Positions 1 through 17,570 of a DNA stretch of 17,570 nucleotides are shown here, in pieces. Source of the DNA: a virus; IMG/VR virus record IMGVR_UViG_3300045988_058210, positions 1-17,570 of that record; one strand, 5' to 3'. Position 1 is the stretch's first letter, and every line of letters begins with the position of its first letter. Both the position numbers and the translations under genes were made by a program. Under the pieces are notes generated by a model, which was given only the letters and a program-made list of their open reading frames with translations, did no database searches and had not been told where the DNA came from.

Positions 1-9
1 ATATATATA
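1..9. repeat. Terminal dinucleotide reiteration ATATATATA, mirrored at 17562-17570
   Basis: The sequence begins atatatatag and ends ctatatatat, so both 3' template ends read 3'-TATATATA. This is a short terminal reiteration of the kind protein-primed replicons use for sliding-back or jumping-back. Confidence 0.8.
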
Positions 10-57
10 GTCCGTCCCACGCGGACATTTTCCCAATTTTGTCCGCGTACGGCGGAC
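10..57. promoter_or_regulatory. Two origin-proximal palindromes: GTCCGT-N5-GCGGAC (10-26) and GTCCGC-N5-GCGGAC (41-57); mirrored at 17514-17561
   Basis: Read directly: gtccgtcccacgcggac and gtccgcgtacggcggac, immediately inside the AT terminal reiteration. Calling them a protein-binding or origin element is inference. Confidence 0.5.
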
Positions 58-74
58 AGCACATTGCACAAAAG

Positions 75-337: not shown

Positions 338-356
338 TGTCCGCGGGTCGCGGACA
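338..356. promoter_or_regulatory. Perfect palindrome TGTCCGCG-ggt-CGCGGACA
   Basis: Read directly: tgtccgcgggtcgcggaca, with 8-bp arms and a 3-nt centre. It belongs to the GTCCGCG palindrome family in the ITR. Confidence 0.5.
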
Positions 357-373
357 CAACCGAAACGGAAACT

Positions 374-393
374 CACTTTAGTCTGCTAAAGTG
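374..393. other. Hairpin cactttag-tctg-ctaaagtg (8-bp stem); a related copy sits at 830-845, just outside the ITR
   Basis: Read directly. The motif aactcactttagtNNgctaaag occurs at 370-391 and again at 824-845 (ctttag-ttcg-ctaaag). Confidence 0.5.
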
Positions 394-410
394 TCCGCGG
401 GTGACGGACA

Positions 411-6312: not shown

Positions 6313-7623
6313 TTAATCGGTCGTAAAGTGAATGTTTGCCGTTATGGAAGATTTGTACCGACTGGTAATCACAACTTTCACGCTTGTTTCTGCGTTTGCT
6401 TTCTGTTTAAGATTCTTCTCATCTTTTGCGATTCGAAGAATGGTTGTTCCCGGGATGACAAACGTATCAGCGGAAGAGTTACCCACTACTTTTACATCGA
6501 CTGCTTTATCGGCTACTCCACTTGACTCAACAGAAAAATTTCCGCCAAAGTCAACATCTGTTCCGGCTTTCACCAGTCCCACGTTATGTGCGGTAATGGA
6601 AGAAACAAGAACCGGCTCGGTCGTAAACACGATGATCGGATAAAACAGGGAATAAGAGAACATCTCTTTTACTGTATACGTACTGTTCCAACGCAGTCCG
6701 CGATTAACGTTATCCTGTACCATCATGCGATACTGTTCGCGGATTTTGAAGAACCGCTTGTCAACCAATACTGCTACAATACTCTCAGCATCGTTAAAGT
6801 TATCAATTAACACCTGCTGTGCTTTCGGAATCATCCGATCTAAATTGTAAGCACTTGCGTAGCTGTCAACATTCATAGCCGCTTTGGTGTCAGGGTCGAC
6901 AAACAAAAGAATGGTATCTTCTTTTGCCGCCGATGTCGCGCCAGCGAAATTATACAGCGGGTTCGGGAACTGAATCTTGTCGATGTAACTCTGAATCTGT
7001 TTTGCAAGTGCGTTCGCGGATGCCTGATTCGTAACCGCCTCCACATGAACCGGGTAAATCTGACCAGCGCGCTTTGCGGATGCGATCAACTCTTTCGCTG
7101 TCGTAAATTCATCCCAATTGCAAGCGGAAACGACACTTTCCACTTTTGCCTGCACGAGACTGCGCAAACCGTAATCATCGAGAAACGCGCCGCGCATATC
7201 CTCAAACCAGATCGTCACCGGATAATCGTTATTAAAATTGATTACATGATACAGCGCCATAATGTAGCTGTCATAAATGGCGGTCGCATCTTCGATGCTG
7301 ATATTGGCATCGTGCGCGTAACCCTGTGCAAAATTTACGTAGACTTCCTGTTCTCCGTTTCCATACGGCATGGCGTTACTGTTCAGTACACGCAGAGGAT
7401 TTCGGAACGCTTCGGTACTGATGGATTGACTGGCAATCAGATTTACCAGCGCAGGAACCAGTTCGTTCCGCGCCATCGGATTGTAAGGGTCGGTTAATGT
7501 TTTTGCAATATCGGCAATATTTTCACGAGTTGCTACCGGAACTCTGTCACGGTAGTCAACACTCATCGTCTGCCGAACGGCGTTCAGCATATTAATATTT
7601 GTCATATCTAATTTTTCTGCCAT
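6313..7623 (-). CDS. Major capsid protein (phi29 gp8-like) with a C-terminal Ig-like domain
   Basis: This 436-aa ORF has the SD AAGGAGAG. NMLNAVRQTMSVDYRDRVPVATRENIADI parallels gp8 [29 protein letters not shown], and AVLVDKRFFKI...RGLRWN parallels AVLVDKDWFMV...RGLYWN. The C-terminal roughly 90 aa is beta-rich (VDVKVVGNSSADTFVIPG..), like the BIG2 domain of gp8. Confidence 0.9.
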   Translation of the reverse strand: MAEKLDMTNINMLNAVRQTMSVDYRDRVPVATRENIADIAKTLTDPYNPMARNELVPALVNLIASQSISTEAFRNPLRVLNSNAMPYGNGEQEVYVNFAQGYAHDANISIEDATAIYDSYIMALYHVINFNNDYPVTIWFEDMRGAFLDDYGLRSLVQAKVESVVSACNWDEFTTAKELIASAKRAGQIYPVHVEAVTNQASANALAKQIQSYIDKIQFPNPLYNFAGATSAAKEDTILLFVDPDTKAAMNVDSYASAYNLDRMIPKAQQVLIDNFNDAESIVAVLVDKRFFKIREQYRMMVQDNVNRGLRWNSTYTVKEMFSYSLFYPIIVFTTEPVLVSSITAHNVGLVKAGTDVDFGGNFSVESSGVADKAVDVKVVGNSSADTFVIPGTTILRIAKDEKNLKQKANAETSVKVVITSRYKSSITANIHFTTD

Positions 7624-10185: not shown

Positions 10186-10200
10186 CTTTGCTCCTTTCTT

Positions 10201-10291
10201 CCCGTCCTTTGAAAAACAAGGAAACCTTTTGACCTGCCAGGACGGGGCGGTTTACTCAACCGTGGCAACCCCTCTAAAAAGGTTTCCCTAT
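10201..10291 (-). ncRNA. Structured RNA element (pseudoknot-capable, terminator-like closing stem); candidate small ncRNA (pRNA-like) or transcription attenuator
   Basis: Minus-strand RNA features, given in plus-strand coordinates. P1 is an 11-bp stem, GGAAACCUUUU (10287-10277) pairing with AAAAGGUUUCC (10230-10220), followed by UUGUUUUU (10219-10212). P2a is GGGG (10272-10269) with CCCC (10247-10244). P2b is CGGUU (10262-10258) with AACCG (10252-10248), loop GAGUA. The 6-nt bulge UUGCCA (10268-10263) is complementary to UGGCAG (10239-10234). An alternative helix pairs CCCGUCC (10246-10240) with GGACGGG (10207-10201), just upstream of the SD. Confidence 0.45.
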
Positions 10292-10297
10292 ATTTTC

Positions 10298-10326
10298 ATA
10301 ATACAGCTTTTCTGTCCGTTTGTCAA
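10298..10326 (-). promoter_or_regulatory. Near-consensus sigma-A/sigma-70 promoter (TTGACA-17-TATTAT)
   Basis: On the minus strand, TTGACA (10326-10321) is followed by the 17-nt spacer aacggacagaaaagctg and then TATTAT (10303-10298). It lies in the 165-bp gap between the ATPase gene and the 96-aa gene. Confidence 0.7.
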
Positions 10327-10334
10327 GTACAGTT

Positions 10335-10351
10335 GTCCGTCTCTTACGGAC
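10335..10351. promoter_or_regulatory. Palindrome GTCCGT-N5-ACGGAC, 8 bp upstream of the -35 box; an extra GTCCGT half-site lies in the spacer (10314-10319)
   Basis: Read directly: gtccgtctcttacggac. It has the same arm sequence and spacing as the ITR terminal palindromes at 10-26 and 41-57, and it overlaps the ATPase stop codon. Confidence 0.5.
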
Positions 10352-11490
10352 TATTTATAAAGATCAATCCCCAGCAACTCAACCGCCATATTTTTACTGT
10401 CAAGATCATCAAAACGCAAGTATGCTTTTTGGTACGCTTCAACTAACCTTACAAACAAGTAATCATAATGATCGAGCATAACCGTGTTTTGTGTGTGATC
10501 ACCGTCACGGAAAACAGCAACATAAGTGCAAGACGGGTTACACTTATGCGTGATATAAATATACCCATCTTCATAATAATCATATACCCCATACCTTTTC
10601 CCACTATGCTGAATCGTGAACAGATACCGCGACCGTCCGGTCGGCTTCTGCACAAACACGGCATCATCAATCAACATCTGATCTCCCACGCTCATGCTCT
10701 GCATGTAGTGACCGCCGCGGAACGCTTTCAAAGCGGTGTTCTCCCACATGGCTTTACTTGCACTATCGTTGTGCGTAAACTCACACACAAAACCAGTTCC
10801 ATGCAGCATTTTGGTTTCTTTCTGATACCGCTTGTGGATGCCGAAAAAAACAAAATGGGGATTGAGCAACGAAATATTATTGGATGCCATCACCAGTTTA
10901 AACCATCGGGACTGGCTTCCATTTCCACGACTGATCGTCAATAACAACGATTGCAGTTTTTCGGGTTCCCCTTTTACGTATTGCCCGCTTTCCATGCTAA
11001 ACTCATCAAAAAACAAAAAGTAGATATCCCGAAAATACGGTGACAGCTTTTTTACACTGTCCATCTTACTTCCAAAACTAAACGCGCATCCGAACGGCTC
11101 ACCATCCAAAAAGTACCGGACGACATTTCCGTTTTTGTCAAGATTTTTATAAGTAATCACACTTCCTAATTTTGGATACATTCTTAGCATATCTTCATAC
11201 ATTGCCGCCGCTCCCGTCATCTCCCCTTTTGTCCGAAAAATCCATCCCGTCTGCAATCCGTACTCTTTACACAAGATACAGCTTGCCGCGGCAAACGCAC
11301 TTGTCTTTCCAGCACTACGGTTGGAACACGTAATTGCTACGCCAGCGAAATCACCGTCTACGTCCGGCTCGGTAAATAACCGAATCGGATTGTAGTACTG
11401 AATCGTATTGCCTTTATCGTCTGCCGATTCAAATTTCACATCATAATCAGCGAAAAGTTTTTCCCAATTGATATCATTCCAAAAAATCAT
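10351..11490 (-). CDS. DNA packaging (encapsidation) ATPase, phi29 gp16-like
   Basis: This 379-aa ORF has Walker A CSNRSAGKTS (compare gp16 GARGIGKS) and Walker B IYFLFFDEFS (compare gp16 TIVFDEFI). The ATG has no adjacent SD; see the finding on the palindrome and mini-ORF at 11491-11530. Confidence 0.85.
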   Translation of the reverse strand: MIFWNDINWEKLFADYDVKFESADDKGNTIQYYNPIRLFTEPDVDGDFAGVAITCSNRSAGKTSAFAAASCILCKEYGLQTGWIFRTKGEMTGAAAMYEDMLRMYPKLGSVITYKNLDKNGNVVRYFLDGEPFGCAFSFGSKMDSVKKLSPYFRDIYFLFFDEFSMESGQYVKGEPEKLQSLLLTISRGNGSQSRWFKLVMASNNISLLNPHFVFFGIHKRYQKETKMLHGTGFVCEFTHNDSASKAMWENTALKAFRGGHYMQSMSVGDQMLIDDAVFVQKPTGRSRYLFTIQHSGKRYGVYDYYEDGYIYITHKCNPSCTYVAVFRDGDHTQNTVMLDHYDYLFVRLVEAYQKAYLRFDDLDSKNMAVELLGIDLYK

Positions 11491-11518
11491 TGTTTCACGT
11501 GAAACATTTTTGTTTCAC
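11491..11518. promoter_or_regulatory. 16-bp perfect palindrome TGTTTCACGTGAAACA plus a third half-site (TGTTTCAC), abutting the ATPase start codon
   Basis: Read directly: tgtttcacgtgaaaca (11491-11506), tttt, tgtttcac (11511-11518). The SD-like AAAGGAGG lies at 11520-11527 (minus sense). The identical 16-mer recurs at 14873-14888. Confidence 0.55.
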
Positions 11519-11800: not shown

Positions 11801-12220
11801 TTAAGCGAACGGGTTGAATTTTGCCAGCTCGCCGAACTTATGGACGTTTACGGCGGAAAGGAAGGCCGTGAATCCCTTTTCGCGGCGGAACTTGCTTTCG
11901 CCGATCGAGAGGAAGAGGTCAACAACTGCGCCTTTGCCGAGTTCGGCAACACTAGAAACGGTGTCGCTCTCGAATCCGTCCTCATAAAAGGCAACGCGGT
12001 AATTTGTCTGCGCTTTTACGTAGATACCATATTCGTCACTTTCTTTCGCCGGAATCCACTTTGCTTCTGCGGCGGCATCCTCACCAAACTCTTCGATAAT
12101 TTTTTCGAAGATGGCTTTCTGCTGGTCTTCTGTGATCAAAGCAGAAATAACGCTTTTGCCGTCCTCTTCCTTTGCATATTTTACAGTTACGTTGTTCAGT
12201 TTCATTTTTGCTTTACTCAT
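11801..12220 (-). CDS. Putative ssDNA-binding protein (T7 gp2.5 / DUF2815-like architecture)
   Basis: This 139-aa ORF has the SD AAGGAGAG. The N-terminal KLNNVTVKYAKEE and the C-terminal GKGAVVDLFLSIGESKFRREKGFTAFLSAVNVHKFGE resemble the OB-fold pattern of DUF2815/gp2.5-like phage SSBs as I recall it. It sits in the replication module. Confidence 0.45.
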   Translation of the reverse strand: MSKAKMKLNNVTVKYAKEEDGKSVISALITEDQQKAIFEKIIEEFGEDAAAEAKWIPAKESDEYGIYVKAQTNYRVAFYEDGFESDTVSSVAELGKGAVVDLFLSIGESKFRREKGFTAFLSAVNVHKFGELAKFNPFA

Positions 12221-12326: not shown

Positions 12327-12563
12327 TTAGTCGTCCAGTCTCTTTGCTTCTGCAAAGAACTGTTCGTCAGGCATCTCGTAGCGGGCGGATACGGTATCGG
12401 TTAATACACAGATGAAATCCTCCGGAAAACCAGCGGCGGCAACAGCGGCGGTTTTTGCTTTCTGCGATTTCAGTTCTTCTGTATTACTAAAAGCGCCGAC
12501 CACCTGTTTTGTGTTTCTGTCAATGACAGAGTAGATAAAATTTTCGATTTTTGTTCTAACCAT
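12327..12563 (-). CDS. Hypothetical protein (78 aa)
   Basis: I trimmed the ORF-track call 12327..12638 to the internal ATG at 12561-12563. That ATG is preceded by GGAGA with 7-nt spacing, and the longer version would begin inside the promoter. Confidence 0.6.
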   Translation of the reverse strand: MVRTKIENFIYSVIDRNTKQVVGAFSNTEELKSQKAKTAAVAAAGFPEDFICVLTDTVSARYEMPDEQFFAEAKRLDD

Positions 12564-12609: not shown

Positions 12610-12638
12610 ATAATAGCATGTCCGACCAAAAAAGTCAA
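12610..12638 (-). promoter_or_regulatory. Near-consensus sigma-A/sigma-70 promoter (TTGACT-17-TATTAT, with TG at the extended -10 position)
   Basis: On the minus strand, TTGACT (12638-12633) is followed by the 17-nt spacer tttttggtcggacatgc and then TATTAT (12615-12610). It lies in the AT-rich gap after the DNA polymerase gene. Confidence 0.65.
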
Positions 12639-12772: not shown

Positions 12773-14932
12773 CTATTCCGGTAACACTCCGTCTTGAGAG
12801 TTTACCAATACTTCATAGTATTCATTCGATACACCTAAGGTATAAGTGGTATCAAGGATTCCAATGTTACTAGCTGTTAAAATTTCTTCCCCGTTTACTT
12901 TGATGTAATGGGGTTTCGAGTTGTTAAAGCAACTGATTGTCCGGCCGACATTTTCCATCCGGCGGCAGAGACGGAAATTATTGCAGCACTTTAAGTTTTC
13001 CGCTCCCAGTTTCTTATTCATGCCAGCGACCGTAGACGTAAAACGCACGGGGTCTTTGCCAGATTGCGCCGCTTTTTCGTCCCATTCCACGCTGCAGTAT
13101 TTTTTCGCGCCGAGTGTTTTAAACTGGATATACAGATCATCCAGTTCCCAGACGCCGAGAATGTAACGGTTGTCACCAACGTCACAAAACGCCGGAATGT
13201 CATTTTCAATTGCACGTTTTGCCAGTATTTTATTTTTGGCGTCAAATTCCGGAATGTGTGCTTCCGGATGCAGAAATTTGATGCTGTCGGTATCACAGTA
13301 CACAACATCCATTCCCACCACGTCCAGCATATCTTGTAACTGCTTTCTTGCATGGGCGGTAACGTAGATTCCCCATTGATAGTGCAAAAAACTATTCTTT
13401 CCCGCGTAGTACGTTTTCAGTGCTTTTTCCGCATCTGCTTTTTCCCGATGCCATTCACCCGTAAAAGCATCCATCGCCCATTCGTCCTGTAAAAGATCTG
13501 TCACACACATTCCGAACGTGCTGTTTAACTTATTCTTAGACTTCATGTACTCGTAGACTTTATCGGGGTTTCCTTTCAACTGGCTTTTTGCGATAAAAAA
13601 TGACATCATCGTTTTACGCATACTTTCCGGTAACTTTCCGCGCGCGGCTACGTAGCACTCCGAGACGGTAAAAAAGTCGTAGTCGTACTGGTTTCTTATG
13701 ATTGCTAAGTCAATTTCCGTCATTGCTATTTCGCAGCAAGCAATAGACAATACGCGTCCATTATCAATCACACAATCTTTCCCGTGCTTCTGACACTTTG
13801 ACAGCGGGATATACGGGACGGGGATATTTTCTTTCATACGCAAGTTGTCAAATTGTACCCGCATGATAACACAACGTGTAGCACACAAGTTGTCAAACTG
13901 TCCCTGCGTTTTGATCTCAACCGCCCGAAACGCACTCATGGGATAATACTTACTTGCGATCTGCGCCGGATAACTACTCGAAATATCCATACTTCCCATA
14001 ACGATCACAGATTCACCTTTTTTCGCTGTGATCGTGTGCCCCGCGTGAATGCGGTTGGCGTGGGTATTGCCGCCACGGAACGCGTCTTTGCAAAGCTGGT
14101 ACTGCGGTAACGTCAAAGCCAGATCGGCAAATACTCCCGGATAATAACCGCTATCTGCCTGCATGGCGCGGCGAAATTCGCGGCGGACGTAGCCAGTTGA
14201 GGTAAGGGGGATTTCTGCAAGGTTGTCATCTTTTCGTAAGGCGCGGATGCATTCGCACAATCCACGAACGTCATTGTAGCAATATCCCTGTTCAACGTCC
14301 GTTAAAGGTGTTTTTGGTGTACGTAGTTTTTTATAGTCATACGTATCAACCAGTTTATAGTGGGTCACGCCCGCACTGTTCTCACAAAATTTTGAAAGAC
14401 TCATGTTGCTTAAAAAATACGAGCATCGAAACTCAATCCCGTATTTATACGCATAACATTTCATAACTTTATGTGCATCCCGCGCAAAGATTTCATCAAA
14501 TTCTATGAAATCTTTCATGAATTGAAATTCATAGGAAAGATTATGAACGTAGACGACAGCGCGTTTCGTATCAGATGTTTTCAAATACAAATGTACACCC
14601 TCACAAAAACGAATAAACTCGTTCCATGTTCGTCCGAAACAGACGGTATCTTTTAAACAGAACTGCCAGTGATACATGAAAGCATCACCTTTTACTACTT
14701 TTTCCCCTGTTTTATGATAGCGTTTATAATCTAATTTTTCCAGTGTGGTTGTCTCAATATCAAACGCCATTTCTACGTCATAATAAACGATAGGATTTTT
14801 CTTTCTTCCTCGTTTGCGGCATTCGCGCAACGTCTGGTAATCGGAAAAAGGAAAATCATTGACCGAATAAATTGTTTCACGTGAAACATCTTCGTTTCCG
14901 TTCACGATAACAGGGACATCCAATTGATACAT
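12773..14932 (-). CDS. Protein-primed family-B DNA polymerase (phi29 gp2-like)
   Basis: This 719-aa ORF carries every expected motif: Exo I FDIETTT, Exo II VHNLSYEFQF, Exo III YCYNDVRGL, YxGG-like AFRGGNT, motif A MDISSSYPAQ, motif B KNKLNSTFGMC, motif C VYCDTDSIKF and KxY LGAKKYC. Confidence 0.97.
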   Translation of the reverse strand: MYQLDVPVIVNGNEDVSRETIYSVNDFPFSDYQTLRECRKRGRKKNPIVYYDVEMAFDIETTTLEKLDYKRYHKTGEKVVKGDAFMYHWQFCLKDTVCFGRTWNEFIRFCEGVHLYLKTSDTKRAVVYVHNLSYEFQFMKDFIEFDEIFARDAHKVMKCYAYKYGIEFRCSYFLSNMSLSKFCENSAGVTHYKLVDTYDYKKLRTPKTPLTDVEQGYCYNDVRGLCECIRALRKDDNLAEIPLTSTGYVRREFRRAMQADSGYYPGVFADLALTLPQYQLCKDAFRGGNTHANRIHAGHTITAKKGESVIVMGSMDISSSYPAQIASKYYPMSAFRAVEIKTQGQFDNLCATRCVIMRVQFDNLRMKENIPVPYIPLSKCQKHGKDCVIDNGRVLSIACCEIAMTEIDLAIIRNQYDYDFFTVSECYVAARGKLPESMRKTMMSFFIAKSQLKGNPDKVYEYMKSKNKLNSTFGMCVTDLLQDEWAMDAFTGEWHREKADAEKALKTYYAGKNSFLHYQWGIYVTAHARKQLQDMLDVVGMDVVYCDTDSIKFLHPEAHIPEFDAKNKILAKRAIENDIPAFCDVGDNRYILGVWELDDLYIQFKTLGAKKYCSVEWDEKAAQSGKDPVRFTSTVAGMNKKLGAENLKCCNNFRLCRRMENVGRTISCFNNSKPHYIKVNGEEILTASNIGILDTTYTLGVSNEYYEVLVNSQDGVLPE
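14873..14888. promoter_or_regulatory. Second copy of the 16-bp palindrome TGTTTCACGTGAAACA, inside the 5' end of the polymerase gene
   Basis: Read directly. It encodes residues VSRET, about 45 nt downstream of the polymerase ATG. Confidence 0.45.
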
Positions 14933-14942
14933 GGTTATTACC

Positions 14943-15521
14943 TCACTTTAATTTAGTTCTATTCTTATTAAAAAGTTCTTCCTCCGTAATATATCCATCA
15001 AGAAAGTCCTCATACTCTTCCAGAATATCTTCGAATTCAATTCCGCTATCATTTAATTTCGAAATAAAATCGTCAATGATCTGATCGGATTCCACCTGCT
15101 TTCGCAAATCCTTTTTGTAGATATTGGATGTTAGAAAACGATACAAGTCTTTATAGTTATCTTCTGTTACTTCTCCATTAATTTTATTCTTAGACTTGTC
15201 AAAACGTCTCTGCATTTCTGCAATCCGGTATCCCTCCAGTGTGGTTTCTGGAGAAGTCAAAAACGCAATCATGGTATCCCATTCCTGCCGGATGGATGCA
15301 TCCGAACGTTTCGTACCTTTCAAGAAACGATTTTTTTCTCGTCCTTGTGACGCGAAAAACTCCTTTACACGTCCGTATTCCCATTGGTCGCGTGCGTGTA
15401 CTTTTTCCAGTTTGGCAAGGCGGCTATTCGCCGCCGCCGCAACTTTAGGTAATTCGCGTTTGATCTGGTCAATGGATAAGTCAAGGTCTTGATAGATGCT
15501 ATAGTCTTTTGAGTTCGGCAC
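14943..15521 (-). CDS. Putative terminal protein (priming protein), assigned by position and composition
   Basis: This 192-aa ORF starts at GTG, preceded by AAGGGGG. It lies immediately upstream of the polymerase gene, as gene 3 precedes gene 2 in phi29. It is highly charged, with a basic N-terminal half (KVAAAANSRLAKLEKVHAR) and an acidic C-terminus (IEFEDILEEYEDFLDGYITEEE) carrying Ser/Tyr/Thr candidates. I cannot verify any sequence homology. Confidence 0.4.
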   Translation of the reverse strand: MPNSKDYSIYQDLDLSIDQIKRELPKVAAAANSRLAKLEKVHARDQWEYGRVKEFFASQGREKNRFLKGTKRSDASIRQEWDTMIAFLTSPETTLEGYRIAEMQRRFDKSKNKINGEVTEDNYKDLYRFLTSNIYKKDLRKQVESDQIIDDFISKLNDSGIEFEDILEEYEDFLDGYITEEELFNKNRTKLK

Positions 15522-15631
15522 TATTCACACCCCCTTATAAAGATTCGCAATTTATCAGAAATAATCTCGAAACCTATTACTTCTATGCGAACATAGCCGC
15601 AATACAATTTTATAAAATCTACTACTCTCAC
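15521..15631 (-). CDS. Micro-ORF (36 aa, VRVVDFIKLYCGYVRIEVIGFEIISDKLRIFIRGCE), absent from the ORF track
   Basis: I translated this by hand. It starts at GTG (15629-15631), 7 nt after a strong SD, TAAGGAGGT, which overlaps the stop of the upstream gene. Its TAG stop (15521-15523) overlaps the GTG start of the next gene by 1 nt. It fills an otherwise unexplained 122-bp gap. Confidence 0.45.
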   Translation of the reverse strand: MRVVDFIKLYCGYVRIEVIGFEIISDKLRIFIRGCE

Positions 15632-15643
15632 TGTGATACCTCC

Positions 15644-15994
15644 TTAATACAAGCAATCTTCATTTGCTCCATCTGTAGAATACAGAGGGCACATAGTACA
15701 GTTGTCGTTTGCAGAACAAATAACACGGTGAGAAACTTCTACATAGTACGCTTTTAAAGCGTAACGTGTAGAAATTTTGTTATGCAAGTTTACGGTAAAA
15801 CCTACGCCAAAATTACCTTTGTAGGGCAACGGATTACATAACGCACTCACCTTTACGTAGCCATTCGTAAGAGACGCGTGATCATATGCGTAAATATGTA
15901 CTTCTCCATCAGTATCTTCTGATTTCACATATAACGGAATATCCTCCATTCTAGCCGGAATGCTAGACAATTTATCGATAGGTAATGCTTGCAT
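15644..15994 (-). CDS. Hypothetical early protein (116 aa), Cys-containing C-terminus
   Basis: The ORF has the SD AAGGAGA 6 nt upstream of its ATG. I recognise no motifs. The C-terminus reads CSANDNCTMCPLYSTDGANEDC. Confidence 0.6.
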   Translation of the reverse strand: MQALPIDKLSSIPARMEDIPLYVKSEDTDGEVHIYAYDHASLTNGYVKVSALCNPLPYKGNFGVGFTVNLHNKISTRYALKAYYVEVSHRVICSANDNCTMCPLYSTDGANEDCLY

Positions 15995-16754: not shown

Positions 16755-17570
16755 CGAAGTGTCCGTCACCCGGAGGGCGCGCGAAGCGCTACAGCCTCCG
16801 GCGGTCATCGGCGGACAACCGCACGATCACAAGCGATAACTAACATGACTCATAGGATATGACTGGCAGTCCGCGCAGCGGACGACCCCGAACGGGCAGG
16901 CGCGGACGGAAAGGACGCGCCGTGTCCGTCACCCGGAGGGCGCGCGAAGCACTTCCGCCTCCGGCGGTCACTGCCAGACATCCGAGCGTTACTGCACGAT
17001 TACTAAAGTTACACATAGATAACCGACGGCAGTCCGCGCCGCGGACGACCCCGAATGGGCAGGCGCGGCACTTCCGCCTCCGGCGGTCACTGGCAGACAT
17101 CCGAGCGTTACTGCACGATTACTAAAGTTACACATAGATAACCGACGGCAGTCCGCGCCGTGTCCGTCACCCGCGGACACTTTAGCAGACTAAAGTGAGT
17201 TTCCGTTTCGGTTGTGTCCGCGACCCGCGGACAAACGGTCGGTTTTGTCCACTTTTCGGGCAAAATGAGTAAGTATTTCGGAAGAATTGTGCGAGATTCG
17301 GGTGGAAAACGTGAATATTTGTGAAATTGTATAGACAATTAGGCTGGACTAACACTTTAGTCGGGTGAAGCGTTTTTGTCAAGTTGGAAAAATGCATAAA
17401 AATTTTCGGGCATATGTGTTGTAATAAGTATTAAAAGTAAACAAATGCAATGAAATAGTTTGCAAAAACGGTGTCTTTCTCACGCGGACACCGTTTCTTT
17501 TGTGCAATGTGCTGTCCGCCGTACGCGGACAAAATTGGGAAAATGTCCGCGTGGGACGGACTATATATAT
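16755..17570. repeat. Right inverted terminal repeat (ITR-R), 816 bp
   Basis: Reverse complement of 1-816, with coordinate x mapping to 17571-x. The mirrored ORFs 16840..17100, 16859..17125, 16989..17180, 17108..17338 and 17182..17397 translate identically to their left-end counterparts. Confidence 0.95.

Follow-up and report, generated by a model that had tools for sequence, protein, structure and literature searches.

The late promoter of the small genome of a phi29-like gut phage carries the palindromic motif that is arrayed in the inverted terminal repeats (ITRs) at both genome ends, and this ITR-type motif is conserved well above neutral in about 100 relatives, including lineages with 69-74% gp16 identity. 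Its two copies at the promoter, sites A and B, are putative double-stranded DNA sites for the same protein as the ITR palindromes TGTCCGY-N5-RCGGACA, a reading that we give, on sequence comparison, about an even chance. Motif identity, statistical excess, conservation and a phase-keeping geometry together point to a likely operator that shares the specificity of the ITR sites.

The window, that is the whole stretch of DNA analysed (17,570 bp), is a complete linear phage genome from a stand-alone IMG/VR virus record, where it is annotated as 100% complete and as having inverted terminal repeats. These ITRs, of 816 bp each, are perfect, and all genes are carried on the minus strand. Protein families indicate affinity to phi29-like podophages: the genome encodes a structural set (gp10-type connector, gp9-type tail knob and phi29-type major capsid protein), tail lysozyme and endolysin domains, a holin, a protein-primed-type DNA polymerase, and a gp16-type DNA packaging ATPase (Table 1). 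A megablast comparison with known phages returned no match, the deposited phages being without a close relative; among cultured phages Clostridium phage HM2 comes nearest, with 42% gp16 identity, and no gp16 relative was found among bacterial genome contigs. Conservation was studied in IMG/VR contigs: a set of 80 close relatives (gp16 identity 88-97%), to which about 20 were added later, and a set of deeper relatives with gp16 at 69-81% identity (L084, L085, L086, L110 and L111).

The sequence TGTTTCACGTGAAACA, which we take to fit the Spo0J/ParB parS consensus TGTTNCACGTGAAACA, is present in two perfect copies, one adjoining the gp16 start (11491-11506) and one inside the polymerase gene (14873-14888); the pattern search expected 0.13 copies. 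The contig L089 also carries ATGTTTCACGTGAAACAT. In phi29, parS sites serve spore entrapment (PMC2731898). The 72% relative L084 possesses, at the tail-appendage position, a large ORF (13817-15880) with Anti-Pycsar Apyc1 and metallo-beta-lactamase Pfam matches, which could encode a virion-associated anti-defence nuclease domain.

Table 1. Sites, promoter and neighbouring features of the window (coordinates are window positions).
Feature	Coordinates	Strand	Remarks
Site A, 19-bp ITR-type dyad TGTCCGT-CTCTT-ACGGACT	10334..10352		matrix score 19.5, unique-region rank 1
Site B, imperfect 19-bp dyad	10313..10331		minus strand TGTACTT-GACAA-ACGGACA; matrix score 11.7, unique-region rank 2
Late promoter	10298..10326	-	-35 TTGACA 10326-10321; 17-nt spacer; -10 TATTAT 10303-10298
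ITR site 1, terminal-most, AGTCCGT-CCCAC-GCGGACA	9..27		mirror 17544-17562; invariant in relatives
ITR site 2, TGTCCGC-GTACG-GCGGACA	40..58		mirror 17513-17531
ITR site 3, TGTCCGC-GGGTC-GCGGACA	338..356		mirror 17215-17233
ITR site 4, TGTCCGC-GGGTG-ACGGACA	392..410		mirror 17161-17179
gp16-type DNA packaging ATPase	10351..11490	-	PF05894, E=1e-24; stop codon overlaps site A
Structured leader RNA	10186..10291	-	near-invariant in relatives; compensatory changes in helices
First late ORF (g96), 96 aa	9895..10185	-	followed by holin, lysins, capsid, tail and connector genes

ITR palindromes and their counterparts at the late promoter

Each ITR contains four palindromes of the same type. An earlier note on this DNA had described two of them, at 10-26 and 41-57, both of which exist, and had missed those at 339-355 and 393-409. 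It had also assigned identical arms to the ITR palindromes and to the one at the late promoter; a 5-bp core is indeed common to all arms, but the full arms differ (GTCCGT/GCGGAC at 10-26 and GTCCGC/GCGGAC at 41-57). The core pattern GTCCG-N7-CGGAC is found nine times in the window, eight times in the ITRs and once at 10335-10351, with a shuffle mean of 0.01. The unit shared by all these sites is the 7-mer TGTCCGY/RCGGACA, with 22 of its 26 copies located in the ITRs; the four internal copies, against 3.4 expected, include two at the late promoter.

A further ITR element at 81-99 (TGTCCGC-GTGAG-AAAGACA) is half of a terminator-like hairpin, and its half-site variant AAAGACA also replaces RCGGACA in site B of the relatives L084 and L111. 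Phage HM2 (L081) displays a degenerate dyad, TGTGCACGAATCGAGGACA, at 14-32 and 17443-17461, at the same distance from the end as ITR site 1, which suggests a terminal element that is positionally conserved over the wider family.

To score the internal sites, a half-site weight matrix was derived from 51 distinct ITR dyads of the phage and its relatives, and the window was scanned for 7+5+7 dimers. The two best matches in the 15.9-kb unique region were site A (19.5), which comes close to the terminal-most ITR site (21.0), and site B (11.7), followed by a match scoring 9.5. Among 3000 first-order Markov versions of the unique region, the probability of any site scoring at least 19.5 was 0.0027, the mean number of sites scoring at least 11.7 was 0.13, and the probability that the top two matches fall within 25 bp of each other was 0.0047. 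The motif at the origins, in the ITRs, and the motif over the late promoter are the same, and the view taken in the earlier note that its presence at this promoter is not random was upheld by the position of the two top matches and by these P values.

The late promoter itself is the top sigma-70/sigma-A-type match in the window (11/12) and is followed by a 105-nt leader and then by the lysis and structural genes. The core palindrome of site A, GTCCGTCTCTTACGGAC (GTCCGT-ctctt-ACGGAC), was found where it had been reported, at 10335-10351, and its spacing of 8 bp upstream of the -35 hexamer was confirmed; site A as a whole ends 7-8 bp upstream of the -35 and is centred at about -52 relative to the predicted start. 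Site A and the gp16 stop codon TAG (10353-10351, minus strand) overlap, the G of the codon being the first base of the palindrome on the minus strand. The half-site GTCCGT at 10314-10319, previously described as a half-site in the promoter spacer, is present (minus-strand ACGGACA, 10319-10313) and belongs to the imperfect 19-bp site B (10313-10331), which extends over the -35 hexamer and into the spacer as far as its eighth nucleotide. Sites A and B are 21 bp apart from centre to centre, corresponding to two helical turns, and together extend from the UP-element zone over the -35 into the upstream half of the spacer. Three of the features expected of an operator are found together: dyad symmetry, perfect (6+6) in site A of the window and imperfect in site B, overlap with the core promoter through site B on the -35, and conservation above the neutral level.

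The same layout, with one site upstream and one in the spacer, is found at the early promoter, as the earlier note had pointed out; here it is formed by twin TTTTCTAGAAAA sites, a 12-bp palindrome. Since the same layout recurs with a different palindrome, paired operators appear to be a habit of this phage. The ITR-type element is absent from the other two promoters (early and middle): GTCCGA at 12620-12625, which had been noted in the 12610-12638 promoter, is not conserved in relatives and is attributed to chance.

Conservation and origin of the internal sites

The 4-fold degenerate sites of gp16 in the close relatives, with a mean major-allele frequency of 0.76 and only 26% of sites reaching 0.9, served as the neutral baseline. 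Against this background the promoter-proximal half-site of site A (10340-10334) is conserved in 76-79 of 81 sequences and the ACGGA of the spacer half-site in 78-81 of 81, except for position 10314, which is either C or T; the -35 is invariant (81/81) and the -10 is conserved as TATCAT or TATTAT. Spacer conservation is not automatic for promoters of these phages, as free variation is seen in these genomes across the middle-promoter spacer (12638-12610). The entire late-promoter region from -60 to +1 is conserved, however, beyond the half-sites, so that a bound factor is not the only possible cause of the conservation of the half-sites. In most relatives site A ranks first in the matrix scan of the unique region and site B between second and eighth.

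Conservation of the whole region fits an explanation in which ACGGACA is the promoter's own element, UP-like or part of the spacer, or the site of a separate regulator, its likeness to the ITR motif being convergent or coincidental. We consider this unlikely. It gains from the fact that the distal arm of site A, which confers the ITR-like palindromy, is the least conserved part, and from the existence of a clade with ITR sites and no promoter site (see below). It does not fit with both top matrix matches falling at the late promoter, with the absence of the element from the other two promoters, or with the perfect 7-bp-arm dyads of ITR form in L084 and L111.

In most close relatives the distal arm of site A has the sequence GTTCG or GTTTG. 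Among 100 sequences it is perfect in 13, carries C>T changes in 66 and is otherwise altered in 21, so that about 85% of the close relatives have a degenerate arm, most of them with one or two mismatches; the central five bases of the site are variable. The gp16 tree of L001-L105 shows discrete site-A haplotypes (e.g. GTTCGT-GGGAG and GTTTGC-GTATG) in scattered positions that require 20 state changes, a mosaic that indicates frequent recombination at the junction of gp16 and the late operon.

Variation of this type bears on the possibility that the palindrome acts as a hairpin, either as an RNA stem-loop closing the gp16 transcript at its 3' end (a stabiliser or terminator) or as a single-stranded DNA hairpin during strand-displacement replication. 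The palindrome has a folding energy of -8.8 kcal/mol and comes immediately after the stop codon, it received a terminator-like flag on the plus strand, and with GTTCG or GTTTG as the left arm the sense strand would still form G-U pairs. The wobble-keeping changes were nevertheless rejected as hairpin evidence: they involve only three polymorphic sites, all of them transitions and uncompensated. No compensatory change was found in 34 haplotypes, and the right (proximal) arm is kept as sequence; such one-sided variation shows that it is the sequence which is conserved, not the pairing. The transcribed (minus) strand has no U-tract, the palindrome being followed by AACUGUAC, the plus-strand terminator-like match faces no gene, and the z-score of the fold is only -1.8. 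An intrinsic (Rho-independent) terminator was dismissed on the same grounds, a stem being present with neither a minus-strand U-tract nor compensatory changes. A hairpin would also leave unexplained the spacer half-site and site B, the phase-keeping linker described below and the identity with the ITR motif. With compensatory changes and U-tract both lacking, an RNA hairpin or terminator is unlikely, and the hairpin explanation as a whole is very improbable.

In the deeper relatives the internal sites take several forms. In L085 and L086 (69% gp16 identity) the palindrome at the stop codon is perfect and the spacer contains RCGGACA. L084 and L111 (72-74%) carry perfect 7-bp-arm dyads TGTCCGT-N5-RCGGACA located 8 nt past the stop codon, together with a weaker site B (AAAGACA); at this distance from the stop codon, the distal arm is not explained by coding constraints. 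L110 (81%) has the proximal half-sites only, the distal arm being absent. The crown group has a linker of 7 nt between site A and the -35; in all five deep lineages the linker measures 17-18 nt, about one helical turn more, which preserves the helix face relative to the -35. The ITRs of L084 and L085, whose ends are assembled, bear the same dyads, and all lineages with the internal site share the identical ITR motif.

These deep lineages also weigh on a third explanation, according to which the internal palindrome is a non-functional relic, a recombination scar or ancestral copy of the genome terminus that is now decaying. Site A resembles terminus positions 2-27, including a TATAnATAG flank (26-nt similarity, 77%), and the haplotype of the L026 group is identical to the terminal site at 16 of 16 nt, spacer included; decay of the distal arm by C>T and the mosaic of haplotypes on the gp16 tree would also be in line with a scar. 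Yet the proximal half-sites are conserved far beyond neutral, four deep lineages retain the palindrome with its position relative to the stop codon changed, the flank TATAAATAG is conserved coding sequence of the gp16 C-terminus, and site B is left unexplained. We regard a relic as decidedly unlikely.

In a clade with 46% identity (L087 and L088), the ITR dyads are found at 13 and 44 from the end and the promoter directly follows the stop codon, and the matrix scan gave no internal site above 4.2. Neither the GTCCG motif nor an internal site was found when HM2 and L089 were searched. The occurrence of ITR sites without an internal site in the 46% clade makes the link between ITR and promoter clade-specific, and the internal sites look like a derived feature of one clade, added onto an older ITR motif. 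Co-option of the ITR motif as an operator within one clade would represent a datable regulatory innovation.

Proposed regulation and candidate binding proteins

If sites A and B are operators that share the specificity of the ITR sites, the protein that binds both would probably be dimeric and sequence-specific, and either phage- or host-encoded. The ITR sites are perfect, with at least four at each end, and as the first of them lies at a fixed distance from the terminus, their role is presumably to organise the genome ends or the protein-primed origins; sites A and B would be bound with lower affinity than the perfect ITR dyads. Occupation of site B would occlude RNA polymerase and so repress transcription, assisted by cooperative binding to both sites, site A being placed two turns upstream, where the alpha-CTD/UP contact would fall. 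Because a near-consensus promoter should need no activator, and because site B lies on the -35 and site A at the UP zone, repression by occlusion is the simplest reading.

A more far-reaching proposal, which we put forward tentatively and consider rather unlikely, is that the ITR arrays act as a sink and the late-promoter sites read the concentration of free origin-binding protein, forming a replication-counting late switch that would replace the p4 logic of phi29. With at least eight strong ITR sites against two weaker promoter sites per genome, replication could titrate out the protein and thereby free late transcription, so that each round of replication would switch on the lysis, virion and leader-RNA genes. 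Such a switch seems recently acquired, because the 46% sister clade keeps the ITR sites without the internal site.

The leader RNA, which lies ahead of the first late ORF and is predicted to start at the late promoter, has at least two helices that show compensatory changes (CGGTT/AACCG and CCCGTCC/GGACGGG). The second of these is interleaved with a third helix, GGAAACCTTTT/AAAAGGTTTCC, behind which comes UUGUUUUU, and the predicted topology is that of a pseudoknot or an alternative structure. A pRNA analogue and an attenuator are candidates for its role; an Rfam scan of the window gave nothing at E<=1 and no pRNA match. The leader of L087 shares a related core (GGGrTGCCAc..TTGAG..), and at 6990-7020 of that contig, in the leader before the first late ORF, GCAGGTTCGATTCCTGC followed by CACCA resembles the T-arm and acceptor end of a tRNA. 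Structured RNAs also follow gp16 in HM2 and L089.

The small ORFs of the phage were searched for the binding protein. Comparison with Pfam and PHROGs at loose thresholds gave nothing useful, and no HTH, RHH or p4-like protein was recognised in the phage. A 116-aa ORF (g116; 15644-15994, minus strand) is located upstream of the terminal-protein candidate (14943-15521), at the position of phi29 gene 4; it encodes an early protein with four invariant cysteines (C-x5-C-x2-C-x11-C) and is limited to the clade with internal sites. Its assignment as p4 was rejected (hhalign probability of 0.4% against Nf p4), no relative was found in the PDB, and its AF2 model is poor (pLDDT 55). The first late ORF, g96, occurs in exactly those clades that bear the ITR motif; its AF2 model is confident (pLDDT 85), and a Foldseek search of the PDB gave nothing at E<=0.001, hence no match to a DNA-binding fold.

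A 78-aa ORF (g78; 12327-12563, minus strand) shows a weak hhalign match to Nf p6 (probability 50%, E=1.7e-4), while tblastn against phages returned nothing; it is a possible p6-like gene. It precedes an SSB-like 139-aa ORF (11801-12220, minus strand) at the position of the SSB gene, whose positional equivalent in L089 has a weak Phi29_Phage_SSB match. A host factor is also a possible binder. The Spo0A 0A box TGTCGAA is absent from the window (0 against 3.4 expected), so that a host factor, if involved, would not be Spo0A.

For phi29-like phages outside Bacillus, which to our knowledge are known almost only from sequence, the timing of late genes without p4 is a question that the shared element addresses. 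A cis-element common to the origins and the late promoter offers a cheap handle for finding the origin-binding protein of abundant human-gut phages, and the same handle could serve to test a mechanical coupling of replication and late transcription.

Comparison with known systems

A comparable arrangement is that of the host regulator Spo0A in phi29, where 0A boxes are located at promoters A2c, A2b, A3 and C2 as well as near both DNA ends, and where Spo0A suppresses transcription as well as replication, so that a single regulator links the two (PMC2731898). The window likewise combines one specificity at both genome ends and at a key promoter of a protein-primed phage, a likeness of arrangement only: the 0A box is the 7-bp TGTCGAA, whereas the window motif is a 19-bp dyad, TGTCCGY-N5-RCGGACA, the sites of which form perfect arrays in 816-bp ITRs. 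Literature searches and a review (PMC11476376) yielded no account of a comparable site apart from those of Bacillus phages.

The p4/p6 switch of phi29 offers a second parallel, as proteins binding DNA near the late promoter are there also tied to replication, and the order of gene 6 and gene 5 in phi29 is mirrored by the possible p6-like gene and the SSB-like gene of the window. Binding by p6 is not sequence-specific, and p4 recognises sites of the form CTTTTT-N15-AAAATG. With no TGTCGAA box in the window, no p4 homologue found and a -35 present at the late promoter, the dyad is assigned to neither the 0A-box nor the p4-site family. The analogy with p4 drawn in the earlier note failed on two counts: no p4 homologue was found, and the late promoter has a consensus -35. 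The phi29 promoter A3 has no -35 and depends on activation; unlike A3, the late promoter of the window, with its consensus TTGACA, is more likely to be repressed than activated.

Adenovirus, another protein-primed linear genome, has sites for sequence-specific factors at fixed positions in its ITRs, as the phage does; those of its auxiliary origin are bound by NFI and Oct-1, both of which are host transcription factors. We know of no internal promoter copy with such a geometry in adenovirus. The combination of origin repeats with copies over a promoter is typical of the autoregulation of Rep in iteron plasmids, of EBNA1 at oriP and Qp, and of the E2 sites of papillomaviruses, where the regulated promoter usually drives the gene of the binder itself. 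In the window the promoter drives the late operon instead, the first ORF of which is without a DNA-binding fold match. As in these systems, a recognition sequence arrayed at the origin is also placed over a promoter, an arrangement that would permit titration or hierarchical occupancy.
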